Notes under the pieces: generated by a model | Told to the model about the DNA's origin: nothing | Database searches by the model: none | What the model saw: the letters and a program-made list of their open reading frames with translations, nothing else | Shown: in pieces, positions 1 to 40,517 of the stretch | Layout of the letters: every line of letters begins with the position of its first letter | Position numbering within the stretch: position 1 is the first letter of the stretch | Made by a program: the position numbers and the translations under genes | Assembly: GCA_963678065.2 (NCBI GenBank) | Contig: CAXXVZ010000005.1 | Coordinates: 1,120,001-1,184,000, forward strand | From: Treponemataceae bacterium | GTDB taxonomy: Bacteria > Spirochaetota > Spirochaetia > Treponematales > Rectinemataceae | Direction of reading: 5' to 3' | DNA: 64,000 bases

Positions 1-140
1 GGTTCAGGTCCGCTGTCAGAGATCGCTCACAAGGGTCACTGCTTCCCTTCCGGTTCGTATGATATATCGCCGTGTCCCTGCCCACAAGGGCAGGGAGGTA
101 GAAGTCCCGTCGCTTGTTATCCGAAATTCAGGTACACGTA

Positions 141-403
141 ATTAGCCACAATCGGGTCTGCCTTCCCCTTCGGCTCGATACACGAAATTCATAGGCATGG
201 AGTCAAGCATTCGGATGGGTGTCTTCCCATAGCCACGGGGCTGCGCGACTACTGTCGCGATGCCCCGCGGCAGTTCTTCAGCCGTACCATCAAAAACACC
301 GCGCAACAAAAAAGCAGTTCACGCTGATTCGGATCTTTTCTTGCCTCGGATACACAAAGGCCGCCCCAGCATACACTGAAGCGGCCTTTGTCTTTTTTTT
401 CTT
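141..403. repeat. Conserved structured non-coding region downstream of toxin/immunity pair, copy A (truncated at 141)
   Basis: Largely aligns with 9130-9381, 15452-15590 and reverse complement of ~38560-38779. Confidence 0.85.
354..400 (+). terminator. Intrinsic terminator-like hairpin
   Basis: 11-bp stem ACAAAGGCCGC/GCGGCCTTTGT followed by T8; repeated at 9333-9378. Confidence 0.65.
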
Positions 404-465
404 GCCTAACCTTAAAGTTGAGCTGCAACGCGACACGCGTTGTCAGCTCGAACTTGGCGTTAGGC
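404..465 (-). other. attC-like recombination site (62 bp)
   Basis: Minus strand GCCTAAC-GCCAA-GTTCGAGC-TGACAACGCG-TGT-CGCGTTGCA-GCTCAAC-TTTAAG-GTTAGGC: R''/5/L''...L'/6/R' layout with two extrahelical bases. Confidence 0.85.
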
Positions 466-1793: not shown

Positions 1794-2795
1794 CTATCCT
1801 GGCCGACCTTCCGGGACAAGGCGGGCGAGCCTTTTGATATAGTCCCTGTCCACCTCCGCATAGATCGCCTGCTCCCTCGGGTGGTAGCGCCGATAGATCC
1901 GCTTAAGGTTCTCCGTCACGACGTGCGTGTACCGCGCCGTCGTCTCGACTCCTGCGTGACCCAAGAGTTCCTGGATCTGGCGCACGCTCACGCCGCGGCT
2001 TAAAAGATGGGTCGCGGTGGCATGCCGGACCGAGTGGGCCGACAGGGTCGGGTCGTCCATACCGAAGCGCCGCAGGAGGGTTCGGAAACGCTCACTCACA
2101 CTCGCTGGCCTCACATGGCTCCCTGTCCTCGGTCCGCAGGTCCCCGTGAATATCCAGGCCTGCGGATCATGGGCGCGGTTCCCGAGGTACAGAAGCAGCA
2201 CATCCCGCGCGACCTCCGAGATCGGCACGAGCCTGTCCTTGTCACCCTTGCCCCGCACGCGCATGATCCGGCGCTCGAAGTCCACGTCGCCCACCGTAAG
2301 GCCCGCAACTTCGCCCACACGAAGGCCAGCCGCGTACACGAGCTCGAAGAGCGCGCGATCCCGCAATCCCTGCGTCGTCGTCGTATCGAGCTCGTCAAGA
2401 AAGCGCTGCATCTCCGTTTCTGTGAACGCGCGGCGGCGTACAGACTCCGGGGGGAGCGGATCACCCAGTTGCCCGGCGGGGTTGTCGTCGATAAGCCCTG
2501 AGCGGTACAGACAGGCGTACAGAAGCCGTACCATCCCGAAGCGACTATTGACCGTCGTGTGCTTAAGCCGTTCTCCCGTCGTCTTCGACAGTCGCGCCGC
2601 GAGATCCTCGCGGTAGCCAAGGAGCTGCGCCGGCGTGACCTGACGTATATCGCCTATCGCGTGCTCTTCGGTCCAGCGGTAATACCCTATGATCGTAGCA
2701 CGCGCGTGGGCCATGTAGCACGCGCCGATCCGCCTGGCCACGAGGTCCTCGCTCACCAGGTGCAGTCCCAAAGCTTGTACGGCCTCGCCAGTCAC
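1794..2795 (-). CDS. XerD-like tyrosine recombinase, catalytic residues intact
   Basis: AGLRVGE, GKGDKDR, HSVRH, LLGH, TTARYTHV; N-terminal SAM-like domain. Confidence 0.93.
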   Translation of the reverse strand: MTGEAVQALGLHLVSEDLVARRIGACYMAHARATIIGYYRWTEEHAIGDIRQVTPAQLLGYREDLAARLSKTTGERLKHTTVNSRFGMVRLLYACLYRSGLIDDNPAGQLGDPLPPESVRRRAFTETEMQRFLDELDTTTTQGLRDRALFELVYAAGLRVGEVAGLTVGDVDFERRIMRVRGKGDKDRLVPISEVARDVLLLYLGNRAHDPQAWIFTGTCGPRTGSHVRPASVSERFRTLLRRFGMDDPTLSAHSVRHATATHLLSRGVSVRQIQELLGHAGVETTARYTHVVTENLKRIYRRYHPREQAIYAEVDRDYIKRLARLVPEGRPG

Positions 2796-3757
2796 GATCG
2801 GAACTCCCAGCTTCCGCGCGGGTGCGCCGCGTCCACCGCCGCGCGCAGGCTCTCCTTGCTCCGCCGCAGGTAGGTCTGTGTGCTGCCTAAGTTCCGAAAC
2901 CCGACCAAGATTTGCACGTGCCGAAGGTCGCAGCCTGACTCGACCAGGTGCGCCCCCAGGCTCGTCCGAAAGCCGTAGCTTGTGATCATCGGCAATCCCT
3001 CACTCGCACAGGTCTCGGCCAAAACCTCGTTGATCACCTGAGTCAGCCTCCCGTGCCCCGCGCCGAAGAGCGTGTGCGCATACCTCCGCTCGTACTCGTG
3101 AAACACAAGTTTCCGTCGCGGCAGATACTCCTTGAGCACCCCCGCCGCGTAGCTCGTCAGGAAGGCCGTCCGTCCCTGCCCCGAGCGCCCGCTCCGAACC
3201 CACACTGTCCGCTCGCGAAGATCAAGGTCAGCCGGTTCGAGCGCGGCCGCCTCACTCGCGTGCAAGCCCGCAGCGTACATGAGTTCCGCCGCCACGTGCA
3301 CCCGATAGGTCTTTACCACCTTCCACCACGGCCGCACCTCATCGAAGCGCGACAGGGCCGCAAGGAGTCTCGCCATCTCCTCGACCGTCAGCGCATTCTC
3401 CGACAGATGCTCTCCCACCCGCACCCGACGGATCTCGCGGAAGGGATTCGTCCGTATCGTCCCCGTCTTCACGAGGTAGTCGAAGAACCGCCTGGCCGCT
3501 TTCAGATGGTTGTTGATCGTCCCCGCGTTGTACGGCCGCCCTGTCGCTGCTGTCATCGTCGACAGCTTCACCTGGTAGCGCAGAGCCTCAGCAAGCCCTA
3601 CCTCCGCAACCTCGAGTTCCTCCGCTTCCAGCCATGAGCCGACGGTCCGCGCAAGCGTGCGTATCGACTCGTAACCCTGATCAGTTACCTTCGGCTGTTC
3701 TTCAGCGAGAAAGGCTTCGATCTGCGCCGAAAGCCGTACGGAGTATATGCCATCCAC
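2792..3757 (-). CDS. XerC-like tyrosine recombinase with degenerate active site (GTG start at 3757 chosen; ORF opens at 3826)
   Basis: Integrase-fold motifs but AGLHASE, SGRSG, YGFRT, LVGF; Tyr kept in TQTY. Confidence 0.88.
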   Translation of the reverse strand: MDGIYSVRLSAQIEAFLAEEQPKVTDQGYESIRTLARTVGSWLEAEELEVAEVGLAEALRYQVKLSTMTAATGRPYNAGTINNHLKAARRFFDYLVKTGTIRTNPFREIRRVRVGEHLSENALTVEEMARLLAALSRFDEVRPWWKVVKTYRVHVAAELMYAAGLHASEAAALEPADLDLRERTVWVRSGRSGQGRTAFLTSYAAGVLKEYLPRRKLVFHEYERRYAHTLFGAGHGRLTQVINEVLAETCASEGLPMITSYGFRTSLGAHLVESGCDLRHVQILVGFRNLGSTQTYLRRSKESLRAAVDAAHPRGSWEFRS

Positions 3758-3843
3758 GTTCGCCTCTCTTCCCCGCCGGAATTGCGCGACCAGATTGGTA
3801 ATTCCTTGTCGCGCCAGGGGCAACACTCGCTATCGGTAGTCAG

Positions 3844-9007: not shown

Positions 9008-9381
9008 GGCACCATCAAACACAGTCTCCCGACTGCGCCTAATTCTCGGTTGGCGGGTCGCGCCGCCTCACGCTGCGCGTGGAGTGGCGCTCCCCCAAAT
9101 CCGCTTTCGCGGACTTCGCCAACCTACGCATTAGCCACAATCGGGTCTGCCACTCCTTTCGGCTCGATACACGAAATTCACAAGTATGGAGTCACGCATT
9201 CGGATATTTGTCTTCCCATAGCCAAGGGGCTGCGCGTCGAAGACGCGATGCCACGCGGCAGTTCTTCAGCTTGCCATTCACGCCTTGAAACAGGCTCGCA
9301 GCCGAACTCGGATCTTTTCTTGCCTCGGATACACAAAGGCCGCCTCAGCATACACTGAAGCGGCCTTTGTCTTTTTTTCTT
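9008..9381. repeat. Conserved structured non-coding region, copy B (includes 100-bp GCCTAAT...ATTAGCC hairpin 9037-9136 and terminator 9333-9378)
   Basis: Four related copies in the window with stem-preserving substitutions. Confidence 0.85.
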
Positions 9382-9444
9382 GCCTAACCTTCCGCTTAAA
9401 CGGCGAGGGCTTTTGGCCCGAGTCCGGTTGAAGCCGCGTTAGGC
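9382..9444 (-). other. attC-like site (63 bp, slightly degenerate)
   Basis: Minus strand GCCTAAC-GCGG-CTTCAACC...GTTTAAG-CGGAAG-GTTAGGC; immunity stop codon TAA lies inside R''. Confidence 0.75.
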
Positions 9445-12518: not shown

Positions 12519-12632
12519 GTTCGCCTCTCTTCCCCGCCGGAATTGCGCGACCAGATTGGTAATTCCTTGTCGCGCCAGGGGCAACACTCGCTATCGGTAG
12601 TCAGTGCCCAGTTCTGCCCAGACTGACCAGAT

Positions 12633-15329: not shown

Positions 15330-15590
15330 GGCACCATCAAACACAGTCGCCCGACTGCGCCTAATTCTCGGTTGGCGGGGAGCGCCGTCCCAAGCCGTGC
15401 TTGGGAGAGCGCTCCCCCAAATCCGCTTTCGCGGACTTCGCCAACCTACGCATTAGACGCTATCGGGTCTGCCTTCCCCTTCGGCTCAATACTCGAAATT
15501 CACAAGTATGGAGTCAAGCATGCGGATGGTTGTCTTCCCATAGCCAAGGGGCTGCGCGACTACTGTCGCGATGCCCCGCGGCAGCTCTTC
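15330..15590. repeat. Conserved structured non-coding region, copy C (100-bp hairpin 15359-15458; no terminator or attC)
   Basis: Aligns to 9008-9267. Confidence 0.85.
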
Positions 15591-22594: not shown

Positions 22595-22598
22595 GTAA

Positions 22599-23087: not shown

Positions 23088-23583
23088 ACTTCATCCCGAT
23101 GACAGCATCAAGTGTACCACTCGTCGAAGCGACCAGTCGGACCGACTGTATGGAAAGACCATCCGGACGGTTCGAAAGATCAGAAAGGAATCCTAAGACC
23201 GCCACAGCGGGACCGGTAGCCTCACACTCGAGAAGTGGCTCTCCTTTATTCGTTACCGTCCGGAACCCGCGGAGGGCCATGCCCCGCTCGGCAGAAAGGG
23301 TCCGAACACGAAGCCCGATATCCGAAAAACGTAGGTCGGATTTTTCCGAGTGCACGGTCGGTGTGGAAGGGAGCAGTGCCGTCAATGCGGCAATCCGCTC
23401 CTGTATCCTGCGCATATCGTCGTCACGAGGTATCTGAAACGCCGCCATCATTCGGCTATAGCGCGCGATGGATGTTTCGATGTCAAAAACTCGTTCACCC
23501 GCGCGGACCAGCAGGATGGCTGCCAGCGTCATTCCAAGGATACGCACAGCGAGCAGGCCGATTCGTTTCTCATGTTCCTGCAT
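23074..23583 (-). CDS. GspM/PilO-like protein
   Basis: TM, coiled coil, ferredoxin-like tail (VLGFLSDL); follows GspL-like gene. Confidence 0.55.
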   Translation of the reverse strand: MQEHEKRIGLLAVRILGMTLAAILLVRAGERVFDIETSIARYSRMMAAFQIPRDDDMRRIQERIAALTALLPSTPTVHSEKSDLRFSDIGLRVRTLSAERGMALRGFRTVTNKGEPLLECEATGPAVAVLGFLSDLSNRPDGLSIQSVRLVASTSGTLDAVIGMKYETK

Positions 23584-25716: not shown

Positions 25717-26261
25717 CAGTCATCCACCATCACCGGAATCGACCCGAACGATGCGATCGTACGATATTCCTTCCCCGCTATCCGGTACATCACCATCACG
25801 GCACGTATCCTTTGAGAGCTCTCGGGGAGCGGTTTCACCGATTCCAGCCGTACTCCATCGATCGTGACATGCTCGGACGAAGAGGCAATGGAAAGCGCAT
25901 CCCCTCCATTCGCCATTTCGAGAGTCAACGGCCCCGTCCCTTCATAGTATGGAAGCCGATAGACCCCATTCCCCGTTTCGAGGGTGACATCCCGAACCCA
26001 ATACGGGATGCGTATTCTGCCGACAAACCGACGCAGGGCGTCATCGGTTTGTACGAGTCGCGATGCGTATGATGCGGCGCGCCTGGTGGGTTCAGACGCG
26101 TGCAAGCCCGCCACCGTGACTGAATACGATGCCGCTCCGATGACCGCAAGAATGGCGAGGGCGGCGATAACCTCAAGGGTCGTCGAACCGTCTTCAGAAC
26201 GACTTTTCGTGTAGATCCCGGAGCACTGCCTCGTTGCGATCCTGCACCATGCGCTCAGCAT
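25716..26261 (-). CDS. Minor pseudopilin (GspJ-like); start uncertain
   Basis: G|STTLEVIAALAILAVIG type IV signal. Confidence 0.7.
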   Translation of the reverse strand: MLSAWCRIATRQCSGIYTKSRSEDGSTTLEVIAALAILAVIGAASYSVTVAGLHASEPTRRAASYASRLVQTDDALRRFVGRIRIPYWVRDVTLETGNGVYRLPYYEGTGPLTLEMANGGDALSIASSSEHVTIDGVRLESVKPLPESSQRIRAVMVMYRIAGKEYRTIASFGSIPVMVDD

Positions 26262-26415
26262 GCGCGCGAAGACGGATTGACGACTGTGACGCGATTCCGA
26301 TACCGGCGGCGATGGTTCCGGCGAGGAGGGCGGCGAGAAAAACCGTAACAATCGCGTCGACCAGCACATATCCGTCAGTCTTCCCAGGTCGTGATATCGG
26401 CGTTGATTCCGTCAC
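26194..26415 (-). CDS. Short minor pseudopilin (GspI-like); start uncertain
   Basis: G|YVLVDAIVTVFLAALLAG. Confidence 0.55.
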   Translation of the reverse strand: MTESTPISRPGKTDGYVLVDAIVTVFLAALLAGTIAAGIGIASQSSIRLRAHAERMVQDRNEAVLRDLHEKSF

Positions 26416-26830
26416 CGCCTTCTTTCCCGTCCGCTCCGAAACTTCGGAGACTGAATGGCTGGCTGTTTTTTCCGGGCATCTGGTATTCATAGGGATTCCC
26501 CCAGGGATCGCGTGGCGCTTTCTTGGTCAGATAGGGACCGCTCCATCCTGCAGGGACTGATTCGCCCGCGGGGCGCTCCCACAATGCTCCCAGCCCCTGA
26601 CTTTGGGTTGGATACTGTCCGCAATCGATGTAGTAGCCATCAAGCGCCAGCGAGAAGGTTTCCAGCTGGCTTCTGGCGGCGACAACCTTTGCCTTGTCGA
26701 GATAGCGGAATGCCATGAACCCTACGCTCGCGGTCAAAATGAGAATGATGCCAATCACCACAAGTGTTTCAACGAATGTCCAGCCGCCTTCGGGATGATC
26801 ATCGATGAAACGATTTTTTCTCCTAACCAT
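26375..26830 (-). CDS. gspG: T2SS major pseudopilin GspG
   Basis: G|WTFVETLVV; YPTQSQGLGAL, WSGPYL, DPWGNPYEY, SFGADGKEGG. Confidence 0.93.
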   Translation of the reverse strand: MVRRKNRFIDDHPEGGWTFVETLVVIGIILILTASVGFMAFRYLDKAKVVAARSQLETFSLALDGYYIDCGQYPTQSQGLGALWERPAGESVPAGWSGPYLTKKAPRDPWGNPYEYQMPGKNSQPFSLRSFGADGKEGGDGINADITTWED

Positions 26831-26853
26831 GAACAGACTCTCCTTACCGTAGC

Positions 26854-28062
26854 TCACTGCAGTACCGATCCATACAGAGAAAACAAGGGCACGATGAACG
26901 ACATGACCAGCCACAAGACAATTCCTCCCACCAGAACGATGAGCACCGGTTCCACGAGCGACATGGCCCGGTCGCTCATCCGATCGACGTCGGCCTGAAA
27001 GTAAATCCGGATCTGCGCGAAGACTGCGCGGGTATGACCGGACCGTTCCCCTGCGGCAACCCAGTGAGTAACATAGCGCGGGAGCTCATTCCGCCCCGAA
27101 CAGGCTCGGGACAAGGAGTCTCCCTTCATGATCGCGTCTTTGATAGCGATGACCGCTTCGCGATAAGCGGTATTGCCAATCACCGCCGACGCTTCTTCCA
27201 GGGCCCGTTCAAGGGGAATCCCTGCGGAAACCAGGATTTCCATGGCGAAGGCGAAGTTCATCGTTTCATAGGATTTCATGACGGTTCCGATTCCGGGAAT
27301 CCTGAGAATCGCACCGTCGACAAACCGAGCGAATGGTACCGTAGTTGCACGAATCCGCAGGCTGACCGGAATGCCGACAAGGAGCGCCGCAAGACCGATC
27401 GAAGACCACCGCAGGGTCGCCGCAATGCCGCGGGCATTCGTCTGCAGTTTCTGTGCGGCTTCTCCGCCGATTTGTTGAAAGATCTCGTACAAGCGCGGAA
27501 GAAGAAAGAAGGAGATACCGAGCAGCCCTCCCGCCGCGAGAACCAACACGAAGATCGGATACGTCAATGCGCCGACTATGTGATCCCGAATCTTTTTCCG
27601 TTGGGACAAGTATTCCGAAAGGCGGGGAAACATTTTTTCCACCGAACCCACCGTGTCCCCGACCGAGATCATCCCGCGATACATCGGCGGGAACGATTCG
27701 CCGCAGGATCGCATCGCGGATACAAAGCTTTCCCCCTTCTGGATCGGTTCCAGCAAGTCGGTAACCAGACGCGCAAGCTGCCCGGCTCCGACAATCCCCT
27801 TTTCCATCTCCAGCGCGTCTTTCAGGGTGAGACCTGAACTTAAGAGCATCGATGTCAGGTCCGTGAACTCTTGAATCGTCTCATGGGAATACCGACGGGT
27901 TCGGGTGGTCCTGATAGTACCTGCGGATACCTCGGATAGGGAAACAAGGAACCAGTCTCCGGTGGAGAAACTCCGCGCCGCTTCCTCGTCCGTTTCGGCA
28001 TTTCTGAGGATGCTTTTGCGCTGCCCCGAGGCATTCGTGACCACACATCGATAGGTAGGCAT
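26854..28062 (-). CDS. gspF: T2SS inner-membrane platform GspF/PilC
   Basis: Two T2SSF domains, ALTYP, GERSG, LVEP. Confidence 0.92.
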   Translation of the reverse strand: MPTYRCVVTNASGQRKSILRNAETDEEAARSFSTGDWFLVSLSEVSAGTIRTTRTRRYSHETIQEFTDLTSMLLSSGLTLKDALEMEKGIVGAGQLARLVTDLLEPIQKGESFVSAMRSCGESFPPMYRGMISVGDTVGSVEKMFPRLSEYLSQRKKIRDHIVGALTYPIFVLVLAAGGLLGISFFLLPRLYEIFQQIGGEAAQKLQTNARGIAATLRWSSIGLAALLVGIPVSLRIRATTVPFARFVDGAILRIPGIGTVMKSYETMNFAFAMEILVSAGIPLERALEEASAVIGNTAYREAVIAIKDAIMKGDSLSRACSGRNELPRYVTHWVAAGERSGHTRAVFAQIRIYFQADVDRMSDRAMSLVEPVLIVLVGGIVLWLVMSFIVPLFSLYGSVLQ

Positions 28063-29549
28063 CAGAGGCTCACTTCGTGCATCAGTTCATCGAGTGTCGT
28101 TGTGCCGTTTCGGACTTTCTCCACGCCATCGCGGGCAAGGACTGTACATCCATGCGTACGGACATGGGCCGAGATATCGGCCGCGGGCGCCCTCGCGGTA
28201 ATCAACTCTTCAAGGATCGGATCCATGGTAAAGATCTCGGACAGCACGGTTCTGCCCAGGTACCCGGTTCCTCCACAGCGGGAGCACCCCCGTGCATCCG
28301 CGACCGTGGTATCGTCGATGCCATACCGCGTGAGGATCCTCTGTTCCGCCTCTGTCGGAAGGCGATGAATCGCGCATGCCGGGCACAGTTTCCGTACGAG
28401 TCGCTGGGCTGTCGCTCCGCGAAGGACCGACGCGATGAGATAGGGCTCGATACCCATATTGGCGAGTCGGGATATGACCGCCACGCTGTCATTCGTATGC
28501 AGTGTCGACAACACGAGATGACCGGTCAGGGCAGCCCGGACCGCGAGCTCCGCTGTCGGCGAATCGCGGATTTCTCCAACCATGATGACATTGGGATCTT
28601 GCCGCAGCACGCGGCGAAGAATGGAATCAAATGACAGTCCGATCATGTCGTTGGTCTGGATTTGATTGACGCCATCGATGGTATATTCCACGGGATCTTC
28701 GATCGTGATGATTTTTAATCCCTCAGCGCAGATTTCCCGCACCATGGCGTTGAGCGTGGTGGTTTTTCCGCTTCCTGTCGGCCCTGTGACAAGAATGAGC
28801 CCATGCTGGATCGTCAAAAACTTTCGGAGCGTCGTGCAGTCGGACTCGGAAAATCCAAGCTGGTCCAGACCCAGCGGTTTTTTCTTTCGGTTGAACAATC
28901 GCAAGACAATCGATTCACCATGGATGGTTGGAATGATGGACACGCGCAGATCGACGGTATCATCCCCGATCTCGACCGTCATGCGGCCGTCTTGAGGAAG
29001 CCGCCGTTCCATGATGTTGAGGTTCGCCATAATCTTGATTCGGGACGCCACGGCAGGGAAACGACCCCGATCGAGAGTTTTGACCGTCTTCAATACCCCG
29101 TCGATGCGGTACCGGATCCGGATTCCCCCTTCCTGGGCTTCCATGTGGATATCGGAGGCCCCACACCGGATTCCTTCGATGCACAGGCTGTTGACCAGAT
29201 TCACGATCGGGGCATCGTTTGCGAGCCTGTCGAGCAGGAGCCGCTCGTCATCGCTGTCAGGATTTTTCGCGGATATCGAATCGGATTCTGAAGCCCGCGT
29301 ACCGAGGTGCGCGGCCAACTCCATCCGGTCTATCTCATGGAACCGGAGGGTCTTGCCATCGTGGAATTTTTGTAAGGATTCCCGAATCGACGGGGAGGTC
29401 GATTCGGTGACGCCGATATCGACAGCCTCCGGATCTTCGTTCAGCTTGAGTACACCGTGTGCTTCACAATACTCCTCGGGATATTGCTGTTTCCCCGCCG
29501 GGATCGGCGCGTAGGAAGCGATCGGGACCCGATCCGGGGCGACGGTCAT
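28062..29549 (-). CDS. gspE: T2SS ATPase GspE/PilB
   Basis: ASDIH, ERRLPQDGR, GPTGSGKTT, LRQDPN, CxxC pairs. Confidence 0.95.
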   Translation of the reverse strand: MTVAPDRVPIASYAPIPAGKQQYPEEYCEAHGVLKLNEDPEAVDIGVTESTSPSIRESLQKFHDGKTLRFHEIDRMELAAHLGTRASESDSISAKNPDSDDERLLLDRLANDAPIVNLVNSLCIEGIRCGASDIHMEAQEGGIRIRYRIDGVLKTVKTLDRGRFPAVASRIKIMANLNIMERRLPQDGRMTVEIGDDTVDLRVSIIPTIHGESIVLRLFNRKKKPLGLDQLGFSESDCTTLRKFLTIQHGLILVTGPTGSGKTTTLNAMVREICAEGLKIITIEDPVEYTIDGVNQIQTNDMIGLSFDSILRRVLRQDPNVIMVGEIRDSPTAELAVRAALTGHLVLSTLHTNDSVAVISRLANMGIEPYLIASVLRGATAQRLVRKLCPACAIHRLPTEAEQRILTRYGIDDTTVADARGCSRCGGTGYLGRTVLSEIFTMDPILEELITARAPAADISAHVRTHGCTVLARDGVEKVRNGTTTLDELMHEVSL

Positions 29550-31747
29550 CGGACAAATCCTTCCACGAACGAGCGATAATACGATTCCATGCGCCTGCCG
29601 GCAGTTCGCACATCGAGATCGTCGCCAAAGGTAACATGCGGAACGATATAGAGAACCATCTCCGTATTCTCTTCTGTCTCGGTGTGGCTGCGGAACAGAA
29701 GCCCCAATAGGGGAATATCGCCGAGGATCGGCACTTTGGAACTCGTGACATCCTTGCTCTTCTGAAGGAGTCCACCGATGATCACCGGTTTCCCCGACAT
29801 CGTCCTGACATTCGTCGTCACAACTTTCTCTGATGTCGGAGGCGGATTCCCTGTCGTGCTCGATGTGTCGGCCCCGCGTTTGGACACCGTCGCGTGGACT
29901 TGCATCGTCACCATCCCATCCCCGGAGACCCATCCATTGATACCGAGAATGAGTCCCGACGTTATTTCTCGCGTGACCCCAGTATATTTTTGTTTTCCGG
30001 TATCGGGGTCGATCTCGATTTCGCGGTATCGGAAGGTGTCGGTATTCTGGAACTTGGTTTCCTGCCCGGAAAGCCCATTCAGTGTCGTATCGGCGAAGAC
30101 ATTGGCGAGATTGTTCGAGAGGCTCGCATTCAGGCTGAGGGCGAATTGGTAGCCAAACTGGGCGACAACGTCAAACGACAATGACAGGAGTTTGGAAAGA
30201 TCTCCGGAAAAGGAAATTCCGGGAGTACTGGACGATGGCCCGAACTCGGCCTTCGATCGGGAAAAGTCCGATCCCTTGCCCTTTTGGTATTGGACGACAA
30301 GCAATTCATAGCGGATCTGCGGCTTTGGCCGGTCGATGAGTTCTATCTCGCGAAGGAATATCTTTCGTTTGTCCTCGGATCCGATATAAAAGAGTAAAGA
30401 GGGCGAACCACTTTCGACAATATCTTCCCTGACAACGGATGGGGGCAGGTTTTTCAAAAGCTCTTCTGTCTTGATGTATTTCAGGCGTACCGGATAGCCA
30501 TCCGTCTTCCGATCGGCAATGCCGATGAAAGAAGCTATATCCTGCCTGCCGGATTCCGATACAAGGGCGATAAACCCATTCCCGTCAGGAAGCAGCACCG
30601 GCGCGATCGGCAAAAGCTTGGGCGGGATGAGCGGGACGATATCCCGTGCCTTGAAGTATTTTATGTCGAATCGCTGGTAGGAAAGTCCATAGAGTGGACG
30701 ATCGACCTGTCGTATGAAACCGAGAATCGGGCCAAGTTCTTCATCGCTGCCGGTCAGAATGATGGAATTGGTCGTGCGGTCAAGACGAGCCATGGTGCCC
30801 GAACTCATATCCGTAGGCAGCAGGTTGAGTACATCCTGCGCCACAAGATAGGAGAGAGAGACGACAATCGATTGCCGGTACTTTCTGAGAATGTCCTTTT
30901 TCTGAACCTCGAAGAGGTAATACACGCCATCGGAAACCAGGTAGTCCGAATTCCCGTGCTCCAGAATGAGTCGGAGCAGCTGGTCGAAGCTCTTGTCCGA
31001 AAAATAGATATTCTCCACAACGAGATCGATCCGGTTCAGGAGGGCGTATTCTTTCCCGGCCTTTGCGAACAATTCTACGAGAACATCGAGGAATCGTCCT
31101 TTGTCGAGGTTGATGGCATACGTATCGCCAGTTCGGGTGATGCTTGGCTTCTTGGCAGCCGACGCATAGGGATCCATGGGATTGACCGGTATTCTGCGGA
31201 TATAAAAGAAGTTCCCGTCCGATTCGAGCCGATAGTCGGCCAGTTTCTTGGTGAGGACATCGAGTGCTTTTTCCGGAGTGAGGCTTTCCACGTTGACGGA
31301 CAAGGTCATCTGAGGGAGGGGATCGAACAGGATGGTCTTTCCGATGGCCCTCGCAAGAGCGCGCACAAGATACTGGATGTCGACATCATCCGCCTTGAGT
31401 ATGACCGTATTCTTGTTTTTATCGAAGGAACTCTGGATTTTCGTGACGTAACAGGTGTTCCCGGTTCGGGTATAGTACAGCTTGTAGGTTGCTAAAAACG
31501 ATGCGAGGGATTGCTCGAAGTCGGCTTCAGTGAAATAGAATGAAGCGGAACCGGTCACTGTTTCATCCGGTACGATCGATACGCCGGAGGCCTCGGACAG
31601 GACTAAAAGGATGTCGACGATGGGTTGGCTCTTGAACTCCATCCGCTTCATCCGTTGCGCCGAGGCACCGGGAACGAGAACACCACAGAACAGGACTATG
31701 ATCACGCAGAGCAATCCGGCGCTGCGTCTCGCGGTATTACGACGCAT
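29546..31747 (-). CDS. gspD: Secretin GspD
   Basis: Signal peptide, repeated N-domains, IGGLL, KVPILGDIPLLGLLFRS. Confidence 0.92.
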   Translation of the reverse strand: MRRNTARRSAGLLCVIIVLFCGVLVPGASAQRMKRMEFKSQPIVDILLVLSEASGVSIVPDETVTGSASFYFTEADFEQSLASFLATYKLYYTRTGNTCYVTKIQSSFDKNKNTVILKADDVDIQYLVRALARAIGKTILFDPLPQMTLSVNVESLTPEKALDVLTKKLADYRLESDGNFFYIRRIPVNPMDPYASAAKKPSITRTGDTYAINLDKGRFLDVLVELFAKAGKEYALLNRIDLVVENIYFSDKSFDQLLRLILEHGNSDYLVSDGVYYLFEVQKKDILRKYRQSIVVSLSYLVAQDVLNLLPTDMSSGTMARLDRTTNSIILTGSDEELGPILGFIRQVDRPLYGLSYQRFDIKYFKARDIVPLIPPKLLPIAPVLLPDGNGFIALVSESGRQDIASFIGIADRKTDGYPVRLKYIKTEELLKNLPPSVVREDIVESGSPSLLFYIGSEDKRKIFLREIELIDRPKPQIRYELLVVQYQKGKGSDFSRSKAEFGPSSSTPGISFSGDLSKLLSLSFDVVAQFGYQFALSLNASLSNNLANVFADTTLNGLSGQETKFQNTDTFRYREIEIDPDTGKQKYTGVTREITSGLILGINGWVSGDGMVTMQVHATVSKRGADTSSTTGNPPPTSEKVVTTNVRTMSGKPVIIGGLLQKSKDVTSSKVPILGDIPLLGLLFRSHTETEENTEMVLYIVPHVTFGDDLDVRTAGRRMESYYRSFVEGFVR

Positions 31748-32207
31748 TTCCGATAATCCTGAGAGCGGCGACACAGCATCCGCCCACCGTAAGAAACGGA
31801 GCGAAGGGAATCCTGTCGTCAGCGCCTTTGTGCATGATCATGCCGGACAGGCACGCGAACAAAAGCCCGCAGCAGGCCGCACAGGCACTAGCGACAAAAA
31901 AGTAGCGAGGCCCGGTATACATTCCGAGAAACGCCGCATATTTTACATCCCCGAATCCCATCCCGCCCGTCAGGTTCCGGATGATGAGAAACAAAAGGAA
32001 GGCTCCACACGCCGCGAGTCCTTCAGTAAACACATTCCCGGTATGAAGCACTCCATCGAGCGCCATGAGGGTAAACAGTCCTCCCAGCGAAAGAATGTCG
32101 GGAATTTTGAAGCTTTTGATGTCGGTGACCGTACACGGAAGGGCAAATGCGAGAAACACTGTCCCCCGTATGAGGTGGCTATACTCATTCACTGGCATGT
32201 GAAGCAT
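31737..32207 (-). CDS. gspO: Prepilin peptidase (A24, short form)
   Basis: TDIKSFKIPD, GMGFGDVK, IPFAPFL. Confidence 0.9.
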   Translation of the reverse strand: MLHMPVNEYSHLIRGTVFLAFALPCTVTDIKSFKIPDILSLGGLFTLMALDGVLHTGNVFTEGLAACGAFLLFLIIRNLTGGMGFGDVKYAAFLGMYTGPRYFFVASACAACCGLLFACLSGMIMHKGADDRIPFAPFLTVGGCCVAALRIIGNAS

Positions 32208-32382: not shown

Positions 32383-35300
32383 ATGAACAAGCCCGCGAGG
32401 AAGAAGCTGAGAGCCTGCATCGTGCTCGCCTGCGCTGCCATGGGCGCATGGGCGCAGACACGGGCGCCGGAAGCGGCGACTGCCGGAGGCGCGTACCGGA
32501 TCGAGCGGGGAACGGACGGGACGGACTCGTACACGCCGCTCGTGAAGGGACGACACACGTTCAGCTTCGGCTCGGGGGCGGGACACATCGAGTTCGATTC
32601 GGACGCGGTGGACCTGTCGGTGGCGACGGTCAGGCAGGCAGGGAAGTCGGGGAAGTCCGTGGCGGCGAGCAGTTTTGCGAAGACGGGGCAGGGACTGGGG
32701 AACCGAGGACTGGCGATGACGGTGAGGCAGGTAGGAGGACCGGCGGCAGGGCGGAACGGACAGATCGACGGGATGGGGATCACGGGTCCGGTGTGGGAGT
32801 TTGGGCCTGAGAAGCTGCGGTTCACGAAGCCTGCGAGGCTGACGCTGCCGTACAGCTGTCCAGAGGGGATGCCGGAGAGCCAGATCCAGGTGTTCTGGTA
32901 CAATGAAAGCGTGAAGCGGTGGGAAGTTGTGCCGAAGCTGAGCCAGGACATGGTTACGCACACCATTACGGCGACTATAGACCACTTCAGCAGCTATACG
33001 ACGGGTATATCGTCGAACCGAAAGGATGAAGCGGGAACGCTTGCGGGACTCGGAGGATCGAGGAGTGAGCGGGTGGACCCGTACTTCGGGACGCTCCTCA
33101 TGGACAGCACAGAGGTGGACATCGCCGCCCGAGGGATCGGCTTCGGCCTTCAATCGAGTTTCAACTCGGATTATTTGTACTCGCAGTATGTGTCGACGCT
33201 CAGCGGAAGTTTCACGAGTTCGGGCAACCTCTGTGTGAGCCCGAATAACAGCTCATACATATATGCATCTGGGTGGAGTTACCTTCTCCCGTTCTGCAAC
33301 TATGGAACCTATGGTGTGCTGACCCTGACCGTTCCCGGCGGGTCGGTGTTCGACCTCACATCTGTATTGAACCAGTTCGGGACGATGACCGCGAACGCGG
33401 AAACGACGATCGACCGTTATGTGGTCACCAAATCGGGAACGACGCTGACGGTGCGCATCCCCGAGACAGGGTTCTCGGGCCGGTTCACGATCTTCGAACA
33501 TGCGTGGTCGGATAGATCGTATCCGCCGGGAGACGATCCAGTTATCACCTATTATTACGAGGTCAAGGCGACCTCTGCGCGGCTCTTCTATCCGGACGGA
33601 CGAGAGGCAGAGTTCACGGGATCGGGGTATGTGTCGAAGATCTGGGATCCGTCCCTGGTGAACGGCGTCACGTTCAGCTACTCGGGGACGACGCTGACGC
33701 AGCTTGACCACACGGATGGTCGGTCGGTGAAGATCTATTCGTATGCGGGATCAAGCGGGCAGACACGAATAGTGTATATCCTGTCGTCGAGCACGGGAAG
33801 GACGACGCTGAATCCGGGGGATCTGTTCCTGCAGCGGAAGACACTCGACTCGTCAGGTAGAGTGATTTCAATCGACGAACTGGGAACGGTGCCGATCACA
33901 CAGACCATCACATCGTTCACGCCGAGCCTGTCGAACGAGTCGACGTACAGCACGGTGCTGCGCTCGACAACATATGGATACTCTGTAGGATTAGGCGGGG
34001 TTGACTATATTGAGATGCAATCGCCGGGGAAAGGGTACTCGAAATATACGTTCGGTGTGTCGTTCCATCCGTATGGGTATTGCACCTATTCCAATCTGTA
34101 CACCTACAACGATAATGATCCTCCTGGGGAGCCACATTGGATCACGGTCGGGGCAAACTACCGCTATTATCAAAATAAACCCAAGGTGTGCACTGTTATA
34201 CGGAAAGAACAGTCCGGTTCGACAGAGTATGCAAAGGATTATTATACCTACGAATCCGGAGGCGGAAAGACGGCATTCACGTCATCAGACTGGGAGAGTT
34301 CAACCACGACATGGCCTGATCCATGGGATATCTACCCATCGAAGACGACGATCGCGACAGTCCGTGTGGCCGGGAGTGAGACGGCACTCGTCAAAAAAGA
34401 ACTATTTTTTTCCCATACAGGGGATCTCCCAAATAAGACATATTTGGGCGTGGGAACGGATATCACGTACAAGAACTCAAGTGACTTCTATACGAAAACA
34501 GGGCGCTCATTCACCCCGACTTCCTCGTTACTTGGGAGCTATCGCACGCAGTACGAATATGTCTACATCGGGGATTCCGGTACATCGCGGTACACGCTGA
34601 CGCATTCGTACGACAGCGATGGGCGGCGGACGCGGACGCAGAACAGCCTTGCGGGAAGTACATACACGGCCTACCTCAATACGCTTACGTCTGACACCAC
34701 CTTCTGGGACAATCCGTACACATCGACGAACAACTTCACGGACAACCTGGTGAAAGGCTTCGGGATCATAGCGGGAGAGGCGGTCGAGCAGGCTTCAGGA
34801 TCGTGCTTCAAGACATACCGGAAATACCAATCAGACCTGAAGCTGCTCGAGACGAAAGATCTTGAATACTATGCGAACGGGACGGCCAACACCAAGACGG
34901 TGACGAGTGCGTGGAACAGCTCGACGAATACGCTTGCGAGCGTGACGGAGCCCTGGGGGGACTCAAGTACGACGACGACCTCGTTCAGCTACGGGAGCGG
35001 GTGGAAGAGCTCGTTCGTGACGACACAGACGAAGGAGCTGGGGGCGAACATCGGAACGAATGATCGTGTCGTCACCACGTATGATTATGACCTTGCGGGA
35101 CGACGGCTGCAGGAAGGGACGGTCGTCACGGATTCACAGGGGACCGCAATCGACGGGACGAAGTATCCCGCAGCGACGAGTAAGCTCGAGTGTGATGGAC
35201 TGGGACGAGTGACGAAGAAGTCACGGGTGGTGAGCGGGACAGAGACGACACTCGGGCGGTACGAGTATGGGCAGGACACGAATGGACTGTGGTCGACGGC

Positions 35301-38001
35301 GACGGACGGGAAAGGATTCCGCACCGAATCGCGGTACGATTTCTACGGACGGCTTCTGCAGGAGATACCGTACAAGCCGGATACGGCGAGCAGGGACGCG
35401 ACATACACGGGGTCAGGAGAGGTGGCGATCGGGAAGGTGGTGAAGACGTGGGATATGGCGATGCCATCGCTCGTGAAGAGCGAGACGGTGTATCTGGACG
35501 CAGGTCTTTCGACGCAACTTGTGACGAGCTACAGCTACGATGTGCTGGGGCGGCCTGTGCAGGTGCAGTCGGGGCCGAGCTCCGGCTCACAGGTGACGAT
35601 GGTGGCGACGGCCTACGACGACAGCCAGAACACGGTGACGGTGGACAGGTACCGGGATGGGTCGACGTACACGAGGACGAGGACGCAGAAAGACTGGCTG
35701 GGACGGACAAGCTCGGAGATCCAGTGGGACGGGACGAACGGGGGAGGGAACAGCCGGACGACGTCGTACGCTTATAATTTTACGGGACAGGTGACGTCGA
35801 AGACGATGCCGAACGGGGAAGCGTACACGTACGTGTACACGCGTGCGGGACGGCTGCAGACGGAAAGCTACCCTATGGGGCGGGGGAGTAAGTCGAACAC
35901 GTACTACCCGGACGGACGGGTGCGTGTCGCGACGGAGCTGAACGGCGACACAGTGAGTTACACGTACAATAAGGCGGGGATGGAGCGGACGAGGACGACA
36001 GCGTCGACGAGGAGCCCGCAGCCCGCGACGCTCGTAGTGACAAGCGCGTACTGCCAGTATGGTCCGGCCACGGTGGCTGAGCAGCGAGGGGGTGAATCGA
36101 CGCCGAGCCAGACGGTGGCGTGGGAATACGGGGTGAACGGGATACCGGCCAAAGAGAGTCGGACCGTCCCGACTCAGGCGGGGTCGAAGACGGCGACGGT
36201 AGTGAGGACCTACGACCTGGCGAACAATCCGGCGAGTGTGACGGTGACGGGGTTTGGTGGGTACGCGAAGGCCGTGAACTATGCGACACCGTACTTCGGC
36301 GGAACAGGATATGGCGGGAACACGAACACGCTGTCGGTGTCGGACAGTTCGTCGAACCTGCTAGGGCGGACAGGACTGTCGTTCTGGGGAGGACGGACGG
36401 CGGTATCGTACGGGACGTCGGGGGGAACGGCGGTGTACGGGTACGACACGTGGCTGCGAATGAGTTCGGTGGACAATCCGGGGAGCCTGTGCGACGGGAG
36501 CTACACGTACGATCGGACGGGGAACGTGACGGGGCGGGACGGGGTGAGCTACGGGTACGACGGGATGAACCGCCTGTCGACGGGAGGGGGAACAAGCTAC
36601 GGCTACGACGCGATCGGGAACCTGACACAGTCGACGGGGACAGATCCGGCGAGCTATGGCTATGCGCCGGTGTCGGGAGTGAACAGCATGCTCCTACGGA
36701 ACATCACGCATCCGAGTTCGCAAGCCGTGACGGACGACGCGAGTCGGGGGTGGGTGACGGGTGTGCAGAACCGATACGCGAGCCTTACGTGGGACGTGTA
36801 CGGGCGGCTGGAGGGTATGGGAGACCTGGCGAGGAACGCAGGTGGAACGCAGACGGACAGCTATCGGTACTACCCGGACGGGCTGCGGTATCGGAAAGAT
36901 GAGACGTCGACGACGGGAGCGGTGACGACGACGCTGTACGTGTACGAGGGGAACGAGATACTGCTGAAGGAGAGGATGGAGGGGAGCACGTGGAAGACGG
37001 CGCAGGTGAACGTGCGGCTTGGGGGTATGGAAGTCGGACGGTACGTGAAGGACTACGTGGGGAACACGGAGCGGCTAGAGTACGTATGGCAGGACAACCT
37101 GGGATCGCGGAGGGCAGTCACGGACACGGCGGGGACGGTGAAGGCGAAGATCGACTATGCGGTGTGGGGTGGCTCGACGGTGACGAACTACAACGGGTAC
37201 GACGGGAGTCAGGATGTGTCGTACACGGGGAAGGAGCGAGACGCGACGGGACTGTACTACTTCAATGCGCGGTACTATGATTGTGTGGCGGGGAGGTTCT
37301 ACTCTGAGGACCCGGTCAGGGATGGGGGCAACTGGTTCGTCTACTGTGGCAACAATCCGCTCTCGGCCACGGATCCCACCGGATTACGAGAAGTTGAAGA
37401 GACAGTCGATAGTGGGGTCTATGAACAGAAGGATCGAAGAGAAGCACCGGAAAGAAATTCAGGGTCATCTTTATTTGGCAAGATAAAAAGCTATTTACCT
37501 GGAGACTATTGGGCATCGAAGGGGTATGACACATGGTCTTCGGGTGGAGGCTTTTGGAAAGGTCTAGGCTATTTTGGACTAGCCGCCTGTAATGATGCAA
37601 CATTTTTGATGTTAGGTCAGATAGGGGGTGTAGCACTAAACAAGCTAGGCGGACTATTTATAAAAAGTGCCGCTGGGGAGGGGGCAATAGAGCTGCCTAC
37701 TGCTCTTCAGGGAGGTGCGGCAACAACTGACGTTTATTTTGGGACAAGACATGGCCAACGTGTATACGCTGGAATCACCAATGATCTTGCACGTCGGCAA
37801 GGTGAACATGAAAGCCGATTTATCCTTGAGCGCATAACTCAATCACCGGTGACTAGAGGTGAAGCGAGGGCTATTGAGCAGTCTTTGATCAGCCAGAATC
37901 CGGGCTTCGAGAATGTAATAAATAGTATTAGCCCGAAGCATTCCTGGTATCAGCAAGCTGTTGATTGGGGTAGTGCTTGGCTGAAAGCCAATGGGTATTA
38001 A
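32383..38001 (+). CDS. Rhs polymorphic toxin 2 with GIY-YIG-like nuclease tip
   Basis: Paralog of rhs1; NNPLSATDPTG; tip VY...VYAGITNDLARRQGEH...EARAIEQ...N. Confidence 0.92.
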   Translation: MNKPARKKLRACIVLACAAMGAWAQTRAPEAATAGGAYRIERGTDGTDSYTPLVKGRHTFSFGSGAGHIEFDSDAVDLSVATVRQAGKSGKSVAASSFAKTGQGLGNRGLAMTVRQVGGPAAGRNGQIDGMGITGPVWEFGPEKLRFTKPARLTLPYSCPEGMPESQIQVFWYNESVKRWEVVPKLSQDMVTHTITATIDHFSSYTTGISSNRKDEAGTLAGLGGSRSERVDPYFGTLLMDSTEVDIAARGIGFGLQSSFNSDYLYSQYVSTLSGSFTSSGNLCVSPNNSSYIYASGWSYLLPFCNYGTYGVLTLTVPGGSVFDLTSVLNQFGTMTANAETTIDRYVVTKSGTTLTVRIPETGFSGRFTIFEHAWSDRSYPPGDDPVITYYYEVKATSARLFYPDGREAEFTGSGYVSKIWDPSLVNGVTFSYSGTTLTQLDHTDGRSVKIYSYAGSSGQTRIVYILSSSTGRTTLNPGDLFLQRKTLDSSGRVISIDELGTVPITQTITSFTPSLSNESTYSTVLRSTTYGYSVGLGGVDYIEMQSPGKGYSKYTFGVSFHPYGYCTYSNLYTYNDNDPPGEPHWITVGANYRYYQNKPKVCTVIRKEQSGSTEYAKDYYTYESGGGKTAFTSSDWESSTTTWPDPWDIYPSKTTIATVRVAGSETALVKKELFFSHTGDLPNKTYLGVGTDITYKNSSDFYTKTGRSFTPTSSLLGSYRTQYEYVYIGDSGTSRYTLTHSYDSDGRRTRTQNSLAGSTYTAYLNTLTSDTTFWDNPYTSTNNFTDNLVKGFGIIAGEAVEQASGSCFKTYRKYQSDLKLLETKDLEYYANGTANTKTVTSAWNSSTNTLASVTEPWGDSSTTTTSFSYGSGWKSSFVTTQTKELGANIGTNDRVVTTYDYDLAGRRLQEGTVVTDSQGTAIDGTKYPAATSKLECDGLGRVTKKSRVVSGTETTLGRYEYGQDTNGLWSTATDGKGFRTESRYDFYGRLLQEIPYKPDTASRDATYTGSGEVAIGKVVKTWDMAMPSLVKSETVYLDAGLSTQLVTSYSYDVLGRPVQVQSGPSSGSQVTMVATAYDDSQNTVTVDRYRDGSTYTRTRTQKDWLGRTSSEIQWDGTNGGGNSRTTSYAYNFTGQVTSKTMPNGEAYTYVYTRAGRLQTESYPMGRGSKSNTYYPDGRVRVATELNGDTVSYTYNKAGMERTRTTASTRSPQPATLVVTSAYCQYGPATVAEQRGGESTPSQTVAWEYGVNGIPAKESRTVPTQAGSKTATVVRTYDLANNPASVTVTGFGGYAKAVNYATPYFGGTGYGGNTNTLSVSDSSSNLLGRTGLSFWGGRTAVSYGTSGGTAVYGYDTWLRMSSVDNPGSLCDGSYTYDRTGNVTGRDGVSYGYDGMNRLSTGGGTSYGYDAIGNLTQSTGTDPASYGYAPVSGVNSMLLRNITHPSSQAVTDDASRGWVTGVQNRYASLTWDVYGRLEGMGDLARNAGGTQTDSYRYYPDGLRYRKDETSTTGAVTTTLYVYEGNEILLKERMEGSTWKTAQVNVRLGGMEVGRYVKDYVGNTERLEYVWQDNLGSRRAVTDTAGTVKAKIDYAVWGGSTVTNYNGYDGSQDVSYTGKERDATGLYYFNARYYDCVAGRFYSEDPVRDGGNWFVYCGNNPLSATDPTGLREVEETVDSGVYEQKDRREAPERNSGSSLFGKIKSYLPGDYWASKGYDTWSSGGGFWKGLGYFGLAACNDATFLMLGQIGGVALNKLGGLFIKSAAGEGAIELPTALQGGAATTDVYFGTRHGQRVYAGITNDLARRQGEHESRFILERITQSPVTRGEARAIEQSLISQNPGFENVINSISPKHSWYQQAVDWGSAWLKANGY

Positions 38002-38002
38002 T

Positions 38003-38470
38003 ATGAACTTGAGAATTTTGAAAGGTACTAATCGGTCACCTGCTATTGGCGACTGCTTCACTATGATGCCGCCTGATGGTCAGTTTTTATTTGGCCGGGT
38101 TATTGAAATAGATGCCAACCCACTCGGATTAGGTGGTGGTATTCTAATCTACATTTACAATGGGCGATCCGAATCAAAACAAGTGCTACCAGATATGACG
38201 GTAAGCAATCTTTTGTTGCCTCCGATTATCACCAATAAGCAGCCTTGGATAAAAGGCTATTTTGAATTCTTGGGAAACGTTTCTTTAGGCCCTAAAGACA
38301 GGCTCGCTGTTCATTGTTTCAAAGATTCCCGCGGGTGGTATTTTAATGAGAGAGGAACCCGTTTGCAGGTTAAAACTGAACCAGTTGGAGAATGGGGGCT
38401 ACATAGTTATCGCACGATTGATGACGCTATATCAAATGCCCTTGGTATTCCACAGTCGCAAGAAAAATGA
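38003..38470 (+). CDS. Immunity protein (Imm26-like)
   Basis: Directly after toxin; IGDCF...DGQFLFGRVI, W..GYFEFLG. Confidence 0.8.
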   Translation: MNLRILKGTNRSPAIGDCFTMMPPDGQFLFGRVIEIDANPLGLGGGILIYIYNGRSESKQVLPDMTVSNLLLPPIITNKQPWIKGYFEFLGNVSLGPKDRLAVHCFKDSRGWYFNERGTRLQVKTEPVGEWGLHSYRTIDDAISNALGIPQSQEK

Positions 38471-38530
38471 GCCTAATGTATAGTTCAAGCTGACAACCCT
38501 ACGGGTTGCAGCTTAACTAGGTTATTAGGC
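38471..38530 (+). other. attC-like site (60 bp) with AAT/ATT core variant
   Basis: GCCTAAT-GTATA-GTTCAAGC-TGACAACCC-TAC-GGGTTGCA-GCTTAAC-TAGGTT-ATTAGGC, directly after the stop codon. Confidence 0.82.
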
Positions 38531-38559
38531 TAATCGAAGAACGTTAGCCGCCTTAGCCT

Positions 38560-38899
38560 TGTGCTGGGACGGCTTTTGTGCATCCGAGGCAAGAAAAAAT
38601 CCGAGTTATGCTGCGAGCCTGTTTCAGGGCGCGAATGGCAAAAAGAGCTGCCGCGGAGCATCGCGTCTTCGACGCGCAGCCCCGTGGCTAGGGGAAGACA
38701 CCCATCTGAATGCTTGACTCCATGCTTATGAATTTCGAGTATCGAGCCGAAGGGGAAGGCAGACCCGATTGCGCCTAATGCGTAGGGTGGCGAAGTCCGC
38801 GGAAGCGGATTTGGGGGAGCGCCACTCCACGCGCAGCGTGAGGTGGCACGACCCGCCAACCGAGAATTAGGCGCAGTCGGGCGACTGTGTTTGATGGTG
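38560..38899. repeat. Conserved structured non-coding region, copy D (inverted; 100-bp hairpin 38773-38872)
   Basis: Reverse complement aligns with 9010-9350. Confidence 0.85.
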
Positions 38900-38993
38900 T
38901 TAAGGGGTTTTGATAGTTTCCGCTGTGACGTAGACCCCGCAGCGTGAGTCACGAGCGGAGAGACCCTCTGCATGGGGGAATATGTACAGCACG

Positions 38994-39251
38994 CTATTTA
39001 TACGCGTCTTTGCGATCACGAACTCGAATTATTTCAATAACCAAACGCCGATCGACGATGTTGTAGACGACACAATACTCGCCGACAATGCGGTAGGTGT
39101 TTTCGGTATCAGTGAGCTTTCGGACGCCATTGGGACGCGGCTCCGAGGCCAAGCTTTCCACGGCGAGGATGATCTTCGAGATGATCGGCTTGGGAAGCTT
39201 TTTGAGCTTCCTGGCGGCCGACGACTTCCACTCGATGTTATACGAGGCCAC
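38994..39251 (-). CDS. RelE/ParE-family toxin, possibly degenerate
   Basis: YNIEWKSSAARKLKKL...PRPNGVRKL...YRIVGEYCVVY. Confidence 0.8.
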   Translation of the reverse strand: MASYNIEWKSSAARKLKKLPKPIISKIILAVESLASEPRPNGVRKLTDTENTYRIVGEYCVVYNIVDRRLVIEIIRVRDRKDAYK

Positions 39252-39435
39252 CGGCTTTGAGCCCCGCCAGCAAATCCGTGTGAGACACGGTCTCTTCGGC
39301 GCGGCGCTCGGCAACGGCCGCGAGGTCGGAGAGGTCCTCGAGGAGTTCGGTATAGGCATCGAGGGGAAGTATGACGGCGGTTTTCTGGCCCTTGGCGTCG
39401 GTGATGTATTGGGGATTGCTGATGGCAGCATCCAT
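39238..39435 (-). CDS. Antitoxin (RelB-like)
   Basis: QYITDAKGQKTAVILP...LLEDLSD; overlaps toxin start; RBS GGAGG. Confidence 0.8.
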   Translation of the reverse strand: MDAAISNPQYITDAKGQKTAVILPLDAYTELLEDLSDLAAVAERRAEETVSHTDLLAGLKAGGLV

Positions 39436-39507
39436 ATTGCCCTCCTATAAAACATCAATCCTACGATTGACTCCAGATCAATAGTTTTTGGCTCGGCAAT
39501 GCCGAGA

Positions 39508-40359
39508 TTACGTACTCAGTTCGGTGGCCGTAGTTCGCATGGATTTCGATACGCTCTCCAGCTTCCTGTCGGTCATTAATCCAACATTGAACTCTTCTCC
39601 CCTCGTCAACATGGACCACACAATCTTCGACAGCTTCCGTGCCGTCGCAATAATCGTTTTCCCTGTGCCCTTCATCCTCTTCATCGACTCATACCCTTCC
39701 ATCAGTCGCCACGATGGAGTTCTTCGACTTCGCCTCATCCCTATGACCACCTGCACAAGCGCAGTCCTCAATTCTTCCGATCCACGCTTCGTTATCCTTC
39801 CGTAGTGTTCCGTCTGATTCGAACACTGCACCCACGGCGCTAATCCAGCATACGATGCGTACTTCTTATAACTCGAAAATCGCCCTATCTCGTCCATATA
39901 CGCCCGGATCGCCCATGCCGTTATCGACCCACATCCAGGTATCGTCTCTAGAAGTTCAACCATCTTGTCATTCACCATGAGCTTCTCGATCTCAACCTCG
40001 ATCGTCTTGACGTTCTCCGTAAGCCGATCTATCGTCTCAAACAGCGGTTGGACTACGAGTCCGCTTCCCGCTCCTGCGAGGTGTCCAGTATCGTCTGGCG
40101 CCCTCACGAGGGTGCTCCGGACTTTCAATAGCCGCCTGAGCTGCTCGCTCGTTTCTGAACACAGGTTCGCTTCGGGCAGGATATCCTTCGACAAAAACTC
40201 TGCGATCGTCGCGGCGTCATGGGTATCCGTCTTCTTCACGGATTCAGTGATCACCTTGAACTTCATCGTGTTGATCACCACCACCGGATACCCCTTCATC
40301 TCCACTCGATGCTTGAAGTACCTCGTGTTCCCCGTCGATTCCCCTTGCGTTTGTCTCAT
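39508..40359 (-). pseudogene. IS110-family transposase remnant
   Basis: KKTDTHDA, IPGCG, YAGLAP..S, ITKRG; N-terminal and central segments missing. Confidence 0.85.
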
Positions 40360-40443: not shown

Positions 40444-40517
40444 TGGGCCCTGCTGGACTTGAACCAGCGACCGACGGATTATGAGTCCGCAGCTCTAACC
40501 AACTGAGCTAAGGGCCC
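40444..40517 (-). tRNA. tRNA-Ile2 (CAT anticodon, lysidine type)
   Basis: GGGCCCTTAGCTCAGTTGGTTAGAGC...CT-CAT-AA...GGTTCAAGTCC...GGGCCCA; body resembles ileX rather than Met tRNAs; no encoded CCA. Confidence 0.9.

Follow-up and report, generated by a model that had tools for sequence, protein, structure and literature searches.

The window analysed here is a stretch of 64,000 nucleotides from a genome of a Treponemataceae bacterium, and the feature under study closes a toxin-immunity unit within it. An Rhs polymorphic toxin gene of 1872 aa (32383..38001, + strand) is overlapped at its end by an Imm26 immunity gene (37991..38470, +; Pfam PF15428, E 2e-12), the stop codon of which abuts an attC-type site with a T:A crossover pair (38471..38530, +), identified by sequence, fold and alignment. 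The initial annotation had placed this site directly 3' of an Imm26-like stop; the stop is the TGA at 38468-38470, and the coordinates given for the site are exact. The toxin gene resembles the second Rhs gene of the window (16259-21805) only up to 37386, at the DPTGL motif. Behind the site lies a non-coding flank (38531..38770, +), which by sequence comparison is related to the flanks behind two canonical attC sites and is unlike the flank common to the A-type junctions described below. Rfam, promoter and terminator consensus scans of this flank gave no match.

The toxin island and its other sites

The site belongs to an island of 42 kb. At one end is a tRNA with a CAT anticodon (40444..40517, -), 42 bp of which recur 2.07 kb to the left of the window and mark the other end. 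Inside are two full Rhs genes, together with a type II secretion-like cluster and two modules arranged in tandem. The cluster (21893-32207: secretin, ATPase, F, G and prepilin peptidase) lies between the two divergent Rhs genes, and it is possible that it provides a delivery route replacing type VI secretion. Each module consists, in order, of a small divergent gene, a primase-family ATPase, a XerD-like pair, a toxin tip, a partner gene, an attC and a non-coding flank. The XerD-like pair (1794..3826, -; second copy 10555-12587) comprises XerC/D-like tyrosine recombinases, not integron integrases. The orphan toxin tips (1001-1861 and 9705-10622) share, as their N-terminal fusion partner, one identical non-Rhs sequence of about 90 aa, which overlaps the end of xerD, and only about 11 codons are similar to the end of the Rhs core; the layout of locus L079 is alike. 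An IS21-family element (4307-6555) interrupts the ATPase of the first module, and the right end of the island (38982-40359) carries a ParE-like toxin preceded by a small ORF, and a fragment of the IS110 family.

In gene order and tandem repetition, these modules are like the Toprim/CHC2 primase, XerC, toxin tip and immunity modules found beside CdiA or Rhs. The Enterobacter example differs in having one recombinase and no attC-like hairpin in our scan. Tandem HTH/CHC2-primase/XerC/toxin-tip modules were also seen behind a CdiA-like gene in L106 (NZ_CP074172.1), with direct repeats in the spacer; our literature search found no paper on such modules. The module XerD was not found at E 1e-70 in 68 genomes of the family or at 1e-45 in plasmids, and the module ATPase had no match in viral contigs.

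The attC sites within both tandem modules are canonical. One of them is a sister of our site, assigned by fold and comparison (404..465, -; AAC/GTT), and is preceded by an orphan toxin tip with its partner gene. The other (9382..9444, -; AAC/GTT) follows a TNT-domain toxin tip and partner gene, and has a mismatched L box and a weak fold (z -1.4). A pattern search further revealed an attI-like site with A for G before TT (117..147, +), and a further A|TT copy is found 1.7 kb outside the window on its left side (G000:C5:1118383, where G000 is the window genome). Both are on the same strand as the site at 38471-38530, 38 and 40 kb away from it. Three 100-bp hairpins complete the set: C (9034..9137) and D (15356..15459) at module junctions, and E (38771..38875). 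The initial annotation had described the 100-bp hairpins as closed by AAT/ATT, and this holds for all three; their L stems, unlike those of attC sites, have no extrahelical base. The attI-like sites and the hairpins share a common right flank from ATTAG onward while their left sides differ, which is the footprint expected from crossover at A|TT. As a side observation, the XerD/primase toxin modules may use the attI-like sites and bulge-less hairpins at their junctions for attachment.

Fold and core of the site at 38471..38530

The site is composed of R'' (38471-38477), a 5-nt spacer, L'' (38483-38490, with an extrahelical base at 38486), a second extrahelical base at 38493, L' (38511-38517), a 6-nt spacer and R' (38524-38530). 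R' reads ATTAGGC and is complementary to R'', and the crossover is predicted between 38524 and 38525. Both strands fold into a hairpin. The bottom strand has a folding energy of -16.7 kcal/mol (z -6.5), and none of 200 shuffles folded as well; the top strand reaches -17.1 kcal/mol, compared with a published mean difference of 2.1 in favour of the bottom strand (PMC5027507). The hairpin has a paired R box of 7 bp, a paired L box and unpaired central spacers of 5 and 6 nt. Its bottom-strand extrahelical bases are G and T, opposite 38486 and 38493, both on the arm where an attC on the + strand should have them. With its R and L boxes, these spacers and bases, a length of 60 nt and the gene stop at R'', the site is like the short Treponema-type attC (59-base element).

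It departs from a canonical attC in the first base of the conserved triplet, which is A:T. The core is AAT/ATT with pairing kept, instead of AAC/GTT, so the site is not a canonical member; we nevertheless predict that it works like an attC. The initial annotation spoke of both core triplets being changed. The AAT/ATT core with its retained pairing is real, whereas only one base pair differs: T38477 pairs with A38524 where a canonical site has C:G. The compensatory changes that it had listed relative to the 404-465 site were borne out by site comparison and alignment. Contigs of two public runs, one of which is possibly the source of the assembly itself, carry the site with 0 differences, which makes an assembly error unlikely, and we rejected it as the source of the core.

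The site also resembles a SALIN, a single attC without integrase (bioRxiv 10.1101/2022.09.11.507474), in being an attC far from intI and behind a gene. SALINs are described there as inserted at 5'-GWT-3' genome sites with a target-derived R'; unlike these, our site has a perfect TTAGGC in R' with A as its base, so a genomic GWT sequence is not the source of R', and the search for a cassette start in front of Imm26 found none. A cassette start (TTRRRY) that holds across loci was found neither before Imm26 nor at DPTGL, and the nearest A-type sites on the same strand lie 23 to 40 kb upstream. A crossover inside the DPTGL codons was considered, as the base before TT equals the attC key in 3 of 3 window units, yet it was rejected: L053 has T there together with an A-type site, and the flank 3' of R' is not an old toxin tip. 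No recombination joint or loose end at the crossover was listed in the contigs of 4 runs, contigs being prone to drop rare variants. No RNA holder was listed.

Recurrence of AAT/ATT sites

The initial annotation had proposed counting AAT/ATT against AAC/GTT sites, and had named uniqueness to this genome, together with inertness in assays, as the result that would speak against it. It was found that the variant is not unique. There are 16 distinct AAT/ATT sites, namely the one in the window and 15 others in six other genomes (G069 with four, and G070, G474, G480, G487 and G521) and six metagenome contigs (L048, L050/L053, L061, L070, L073 and L074). At 12 of the 16 the site lies at toxin-tip/immunity-like pairs or Rhs repeats, and in G487 it stands behind a full Rhs; the loci of the remaining four (L061, L074, G480 and G069 C353) are incomplete or without assigned context. 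The immunity genes score above the Pfam cut-off at three sites (Imm26, Imm40 and Imm63) and below it at two. Since these sites are kin, the counts do not represent independent events.

The sites were collected in several scans. With AAT fixed, the metagenome scan yielded 27 loci (18 GTT and 9 ATT); seven of the nine, representing six distinct sites, are close relatives of 38471-38530, and two were left out, L049 folding in another context and L071 showing no fold. With ATT fixed, the genome scan yielded 23 loci (15 AAC and 8 AAT), of which two of the eight fold as attC (L078 and L079) and six were dropped for want of an attC fold. A covariance model of 10 sites gave matches in 6 of 68 genomes of the family, with 0 AAT/ATT; in 12 genomes around G069 it matched five, and AAT/ATT sites appeared in G069 (four), G070, G474 and G480. 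With both bases left free in 171 genomes of the window's order, the 140 matches listed out of 152 contained 135 AAC/GTT, 2 AAT/GTT, 0 AAC/ATT and 3 AAT/ATT, as counted by eye from the result tables, and the three are those of the window, G487 and G521. Another scan with both bases free gave 5 AAT/ATT and 1 AAC/GTT. In viral contigs all 29 loci were AAC/GTT, and the AAT/ATT pattern had 0 matches. A narrow pattern had no match in 400 other genomes of the phylum, and we judge it too strict because a wider pattern matched some of the same genomes. L078 comes from a record titled Borreliella garinii; this is a cave MAG of 3.4 Mb that shares its family with a Spirochaetales MAG, and the label looks wrong.

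When 10 sites were aligned, 93.9% of cells were paired and 6 pairs had changed on both sides, and 0 and 4 of 500 shuffles, respectively, scored as high. The constancy of the first extrahelical base and of the spacer lengths in pattern-found sites is no evidence, because the search patterns fixed them. The second extrahelical base, which the metagenome and genome patterns did not require, is kept in 10 of 10 aligned sites. At least six different L-box pairs occur, and two of the 16 sites have a 4-nt spacer. R' contains TTAGGC in 15 of 16 sites and is variable in the resident array (C3); this near-constancy hints at little traffic. Only in G521 do two such sites follow one another on a contig, within one Rhs array, and their cores are mixed, AAT/ATT followed by AAC/GTT, which leaves no observed example of an array made up of matching A sites. 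Behind four AAT/ATT sites there is a unit of about 60 bp between two TTAGGC motifs, with a reversed attC L stem and a damaged R box (L122:1286-1352, L124:1427-1497, L050:1828-1896 and L120); it is absent in L119, behind the G474 site. The link between attC and toxins occurs with G as the key too, since G027 (L108:1501-1560), one of the six family genomes matched by the covariance model, carries a lone canonical attC, its R boxes perfect, downstream of a toxin-like gene pair.

Integrases, the one-base rule and competing explanations

The window genome possesses a true integron on another contig, with an IntI of 450 bits, an attI that reads G|TT, and no fewer than 9 AAC/GTT sites. Its intI is transcribed toward the array, as in the Treponema integron (PMC3607928). 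In a genome-wide scan with any first base, AAT/ATT was seen only at 38471-38530 among the 10 sites listed. IntI above the cut-off was found in G000, G070, G480 and G487; G474 and G521 yielded none, and G069 yielded pieces only. The attI beside intI is G|TT in all five genomes where it was recognised (G000, G069, G070, G027 and G475). These five argue against an integron lineage with an A-carrying attI; none was recognised in G480 and G487. The XerD-like pair of the island scores 88 and 50 bits against TIGR02249, for which the cut-off is 265, and its alignment has gaps where the IntI-specific insertion would be.

The GTT triplet has been regarded as the sole invariant of integron sites. According to PMC2811028, all integrons characterised until then show GTT, and the question posed there is why it is invariant though the enzyme does not require it. 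IntI1 requires the same first triplet base in both partners, not G specifically: in Table 4 of that paper, wild-type IntI1 recombines ATT x ATT at 1 and ATT x GTT at 3e-3 of wild type, and a G1-to-A1 attC is cleaved by the wild-type enzyme in vitro. The compensated substitution in our site is the same as that in the engineered attC-aadA7-ATT and attI1-ATT, which recombine with an ATT partner at the wild-type rate (Frumerie et al., PMC2811028). Those mutants are laboratory constructs acted on by IntI1, unlike the AAT/ATT sites, which are a natural, recurring class; a concerted triplet change was deemed unlikely in nature by the authors. The natural class thus bears on why GTT is invariant. One genome holding G-type sites, A-type sites and one integrase allows a direct test, and the finding connects attC sites with Rhs toxin-immunity units as well. 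AAC/GTT and GWT have been taken as the rule (PMC4889954; bioRxiv 10.1101/2022.09.11.507474), and searches that fix AAC/GTT would miss AAT/ATT sites. Our literature search, judged by title and the start of the abstract and covering neither most subscription journals nor supplementary attC lists, found no paper describing AAT/ATT sites or a link between attC and Rhs toxin-immunity units.

The reading we lean towards, with a little less than even confidence, is that this attC fold with a T:A crossover pair, recurring mostly behind Rhs toxin/immunity units, is a working substrate of an ordinary IntI that would recombine only with A-type partners. It builds on the fold, the recurrence, the context, the G at the resident attI and the A-type sites of the island, and it borrows the one-base rule from the published IntI1 data; we infer from these continued recombination, with IntI as the actor and a benefit to the unit. 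Integron strand exchange reads one base, so that the T:A swap would serve as a key, one that excludes the G-carrying resident attI and array about 300-fold. Given the G of this attI and array and the lack of the IntI insertion in the XerD-like pair, our prediction is that the site is shielded from the resident integron. The toxin-immunity pair would be spared disturbance by the main integron, with exchange with A-type sites left open. Candidate partners in the window genome would be the two attI-like A|TT sites and the three AAT/ATT hairpins of the same island. It has been reported that attC sites without extrahelical bases still recombine, on both strands (PMC5027507). A-type partner sites were found in the window island only. 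The attI-like site was found in one of five carrier genomes searched, the window genome, with a pattern built from its own sites and with several of the genomes fragmented. Also speaking against this reading are the lack of a listed joint at the crossover, the mixed cores of G521, the near-constant R', the carriers in which IntI was not found or only in pieces, the two sites with a 4-nt spacer and the dissimilar flank behind our site.

The absence of an A partner from four of the five genomes also fits an explanation that we consider possible though unlikely, in which toxin-immunity units domesticated an attC at their 3' end, and T:A arose once and spread by homologous recombination through the Rhs repeats, the stem being kept as an RNA or DNA hairpin that never recombines. 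The pair could have arisen by two C-to-T changes, or by one change copied across the hairpin, template switching at quasi-palindromes being a known process. Such a passenger would account for the near-invariant R', the flanks that are not cassette-like, the mixed cores in G521, and the further hairpins and terminator-like stems that follow many sites. One run with different sequence after DPTGL (loose end at 37386) suggests tip exchange at the Rhs core. However, compensation is not needed for a lock, since a mismatched core blocks recombination harder (6e-6 versus 2.2e-3; PMC2811028). Both bulges persist over six L-box types, which we would regard as needless for an RNA stem, and A-type junctions are present in the window island.

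The initial annotation preferred a recombinase with non-canonical specificity to decay. Decay is indeed contradicted by the 15 other sites and the retained fold; the new specificity does not follow, since wild-type IntI1 handles ATT (PMC2811028), the XerD-like pair lacks the IntI insertion and a true IntI exists elsewhere in the genome. Because wild-type IntI1 recombines ATT x ATT normally, only a matching partner is needed, and no new enzyme. An AAT/ATT specificity peculiar to the XerD-like pair, with action on both 38471-38530 and the 100-bp hairpins, is improbable in our estimate, even though A-type junctions lie at module ends and related modules stand beside AAT/ATT sites in G070 and G474. 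The IntI insertion, absent from the pair, reads the extrahelical bases, and our site keeps these. Moreover, each XerD module contains a canonical attC, the related module beside CdiA on an Enterobacter plasmid shows no attC-like hairpin in the scan, and G487 carries its site behind a full Rhs. The connection between the AAT/ATT core and the 100-bp hairpins drawn in the initial annotation holds in the window genome and not elsewhere: the hairpin motif matches 5 of 127 loci, all in the window genome, and is missing from the loci of other genomes, which led us to reject the hairpins as a general partner of AAT/ATT sites. It is plausible that the XerD pair acts on the bulge-less hairpins themselves. 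Lastly, private decay of one attC in the window genome is refuted as stated, for although decaying array sites often show a single change (the 18 AAT/GTT and 15 AAC/ATT loci), there are 15 more compensated sites in a narrow context, and no folded double change was seen among the proteobacterial matches of the ATT-fixed genome scan.

The keyed-substrate reading that we lean towards could be extended to a second, A-keyed cassette channel in spirochaete toxin islands running on an ordinary integrase, to which we assign a low probability. The attI-like A|TT sites, the bulge-less hairpins and the AAT/ATT attC would then recombine among themselves and ignore the G-keyed array, and the sites at 117-147 and 38471 would bound a giant cassette of 38 kb that includes the two Rhs toxins along with the type II secretion-like cluster. 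Under the same extension, the AAG/CTT core found in G069 would be a possible third key. This attC-like hairpin (L133:2122-2193, -; G069 C353) is perfectly paired with z -5.1, and sites related to it, with mismatched cores, are present in G069 C464 and C481.
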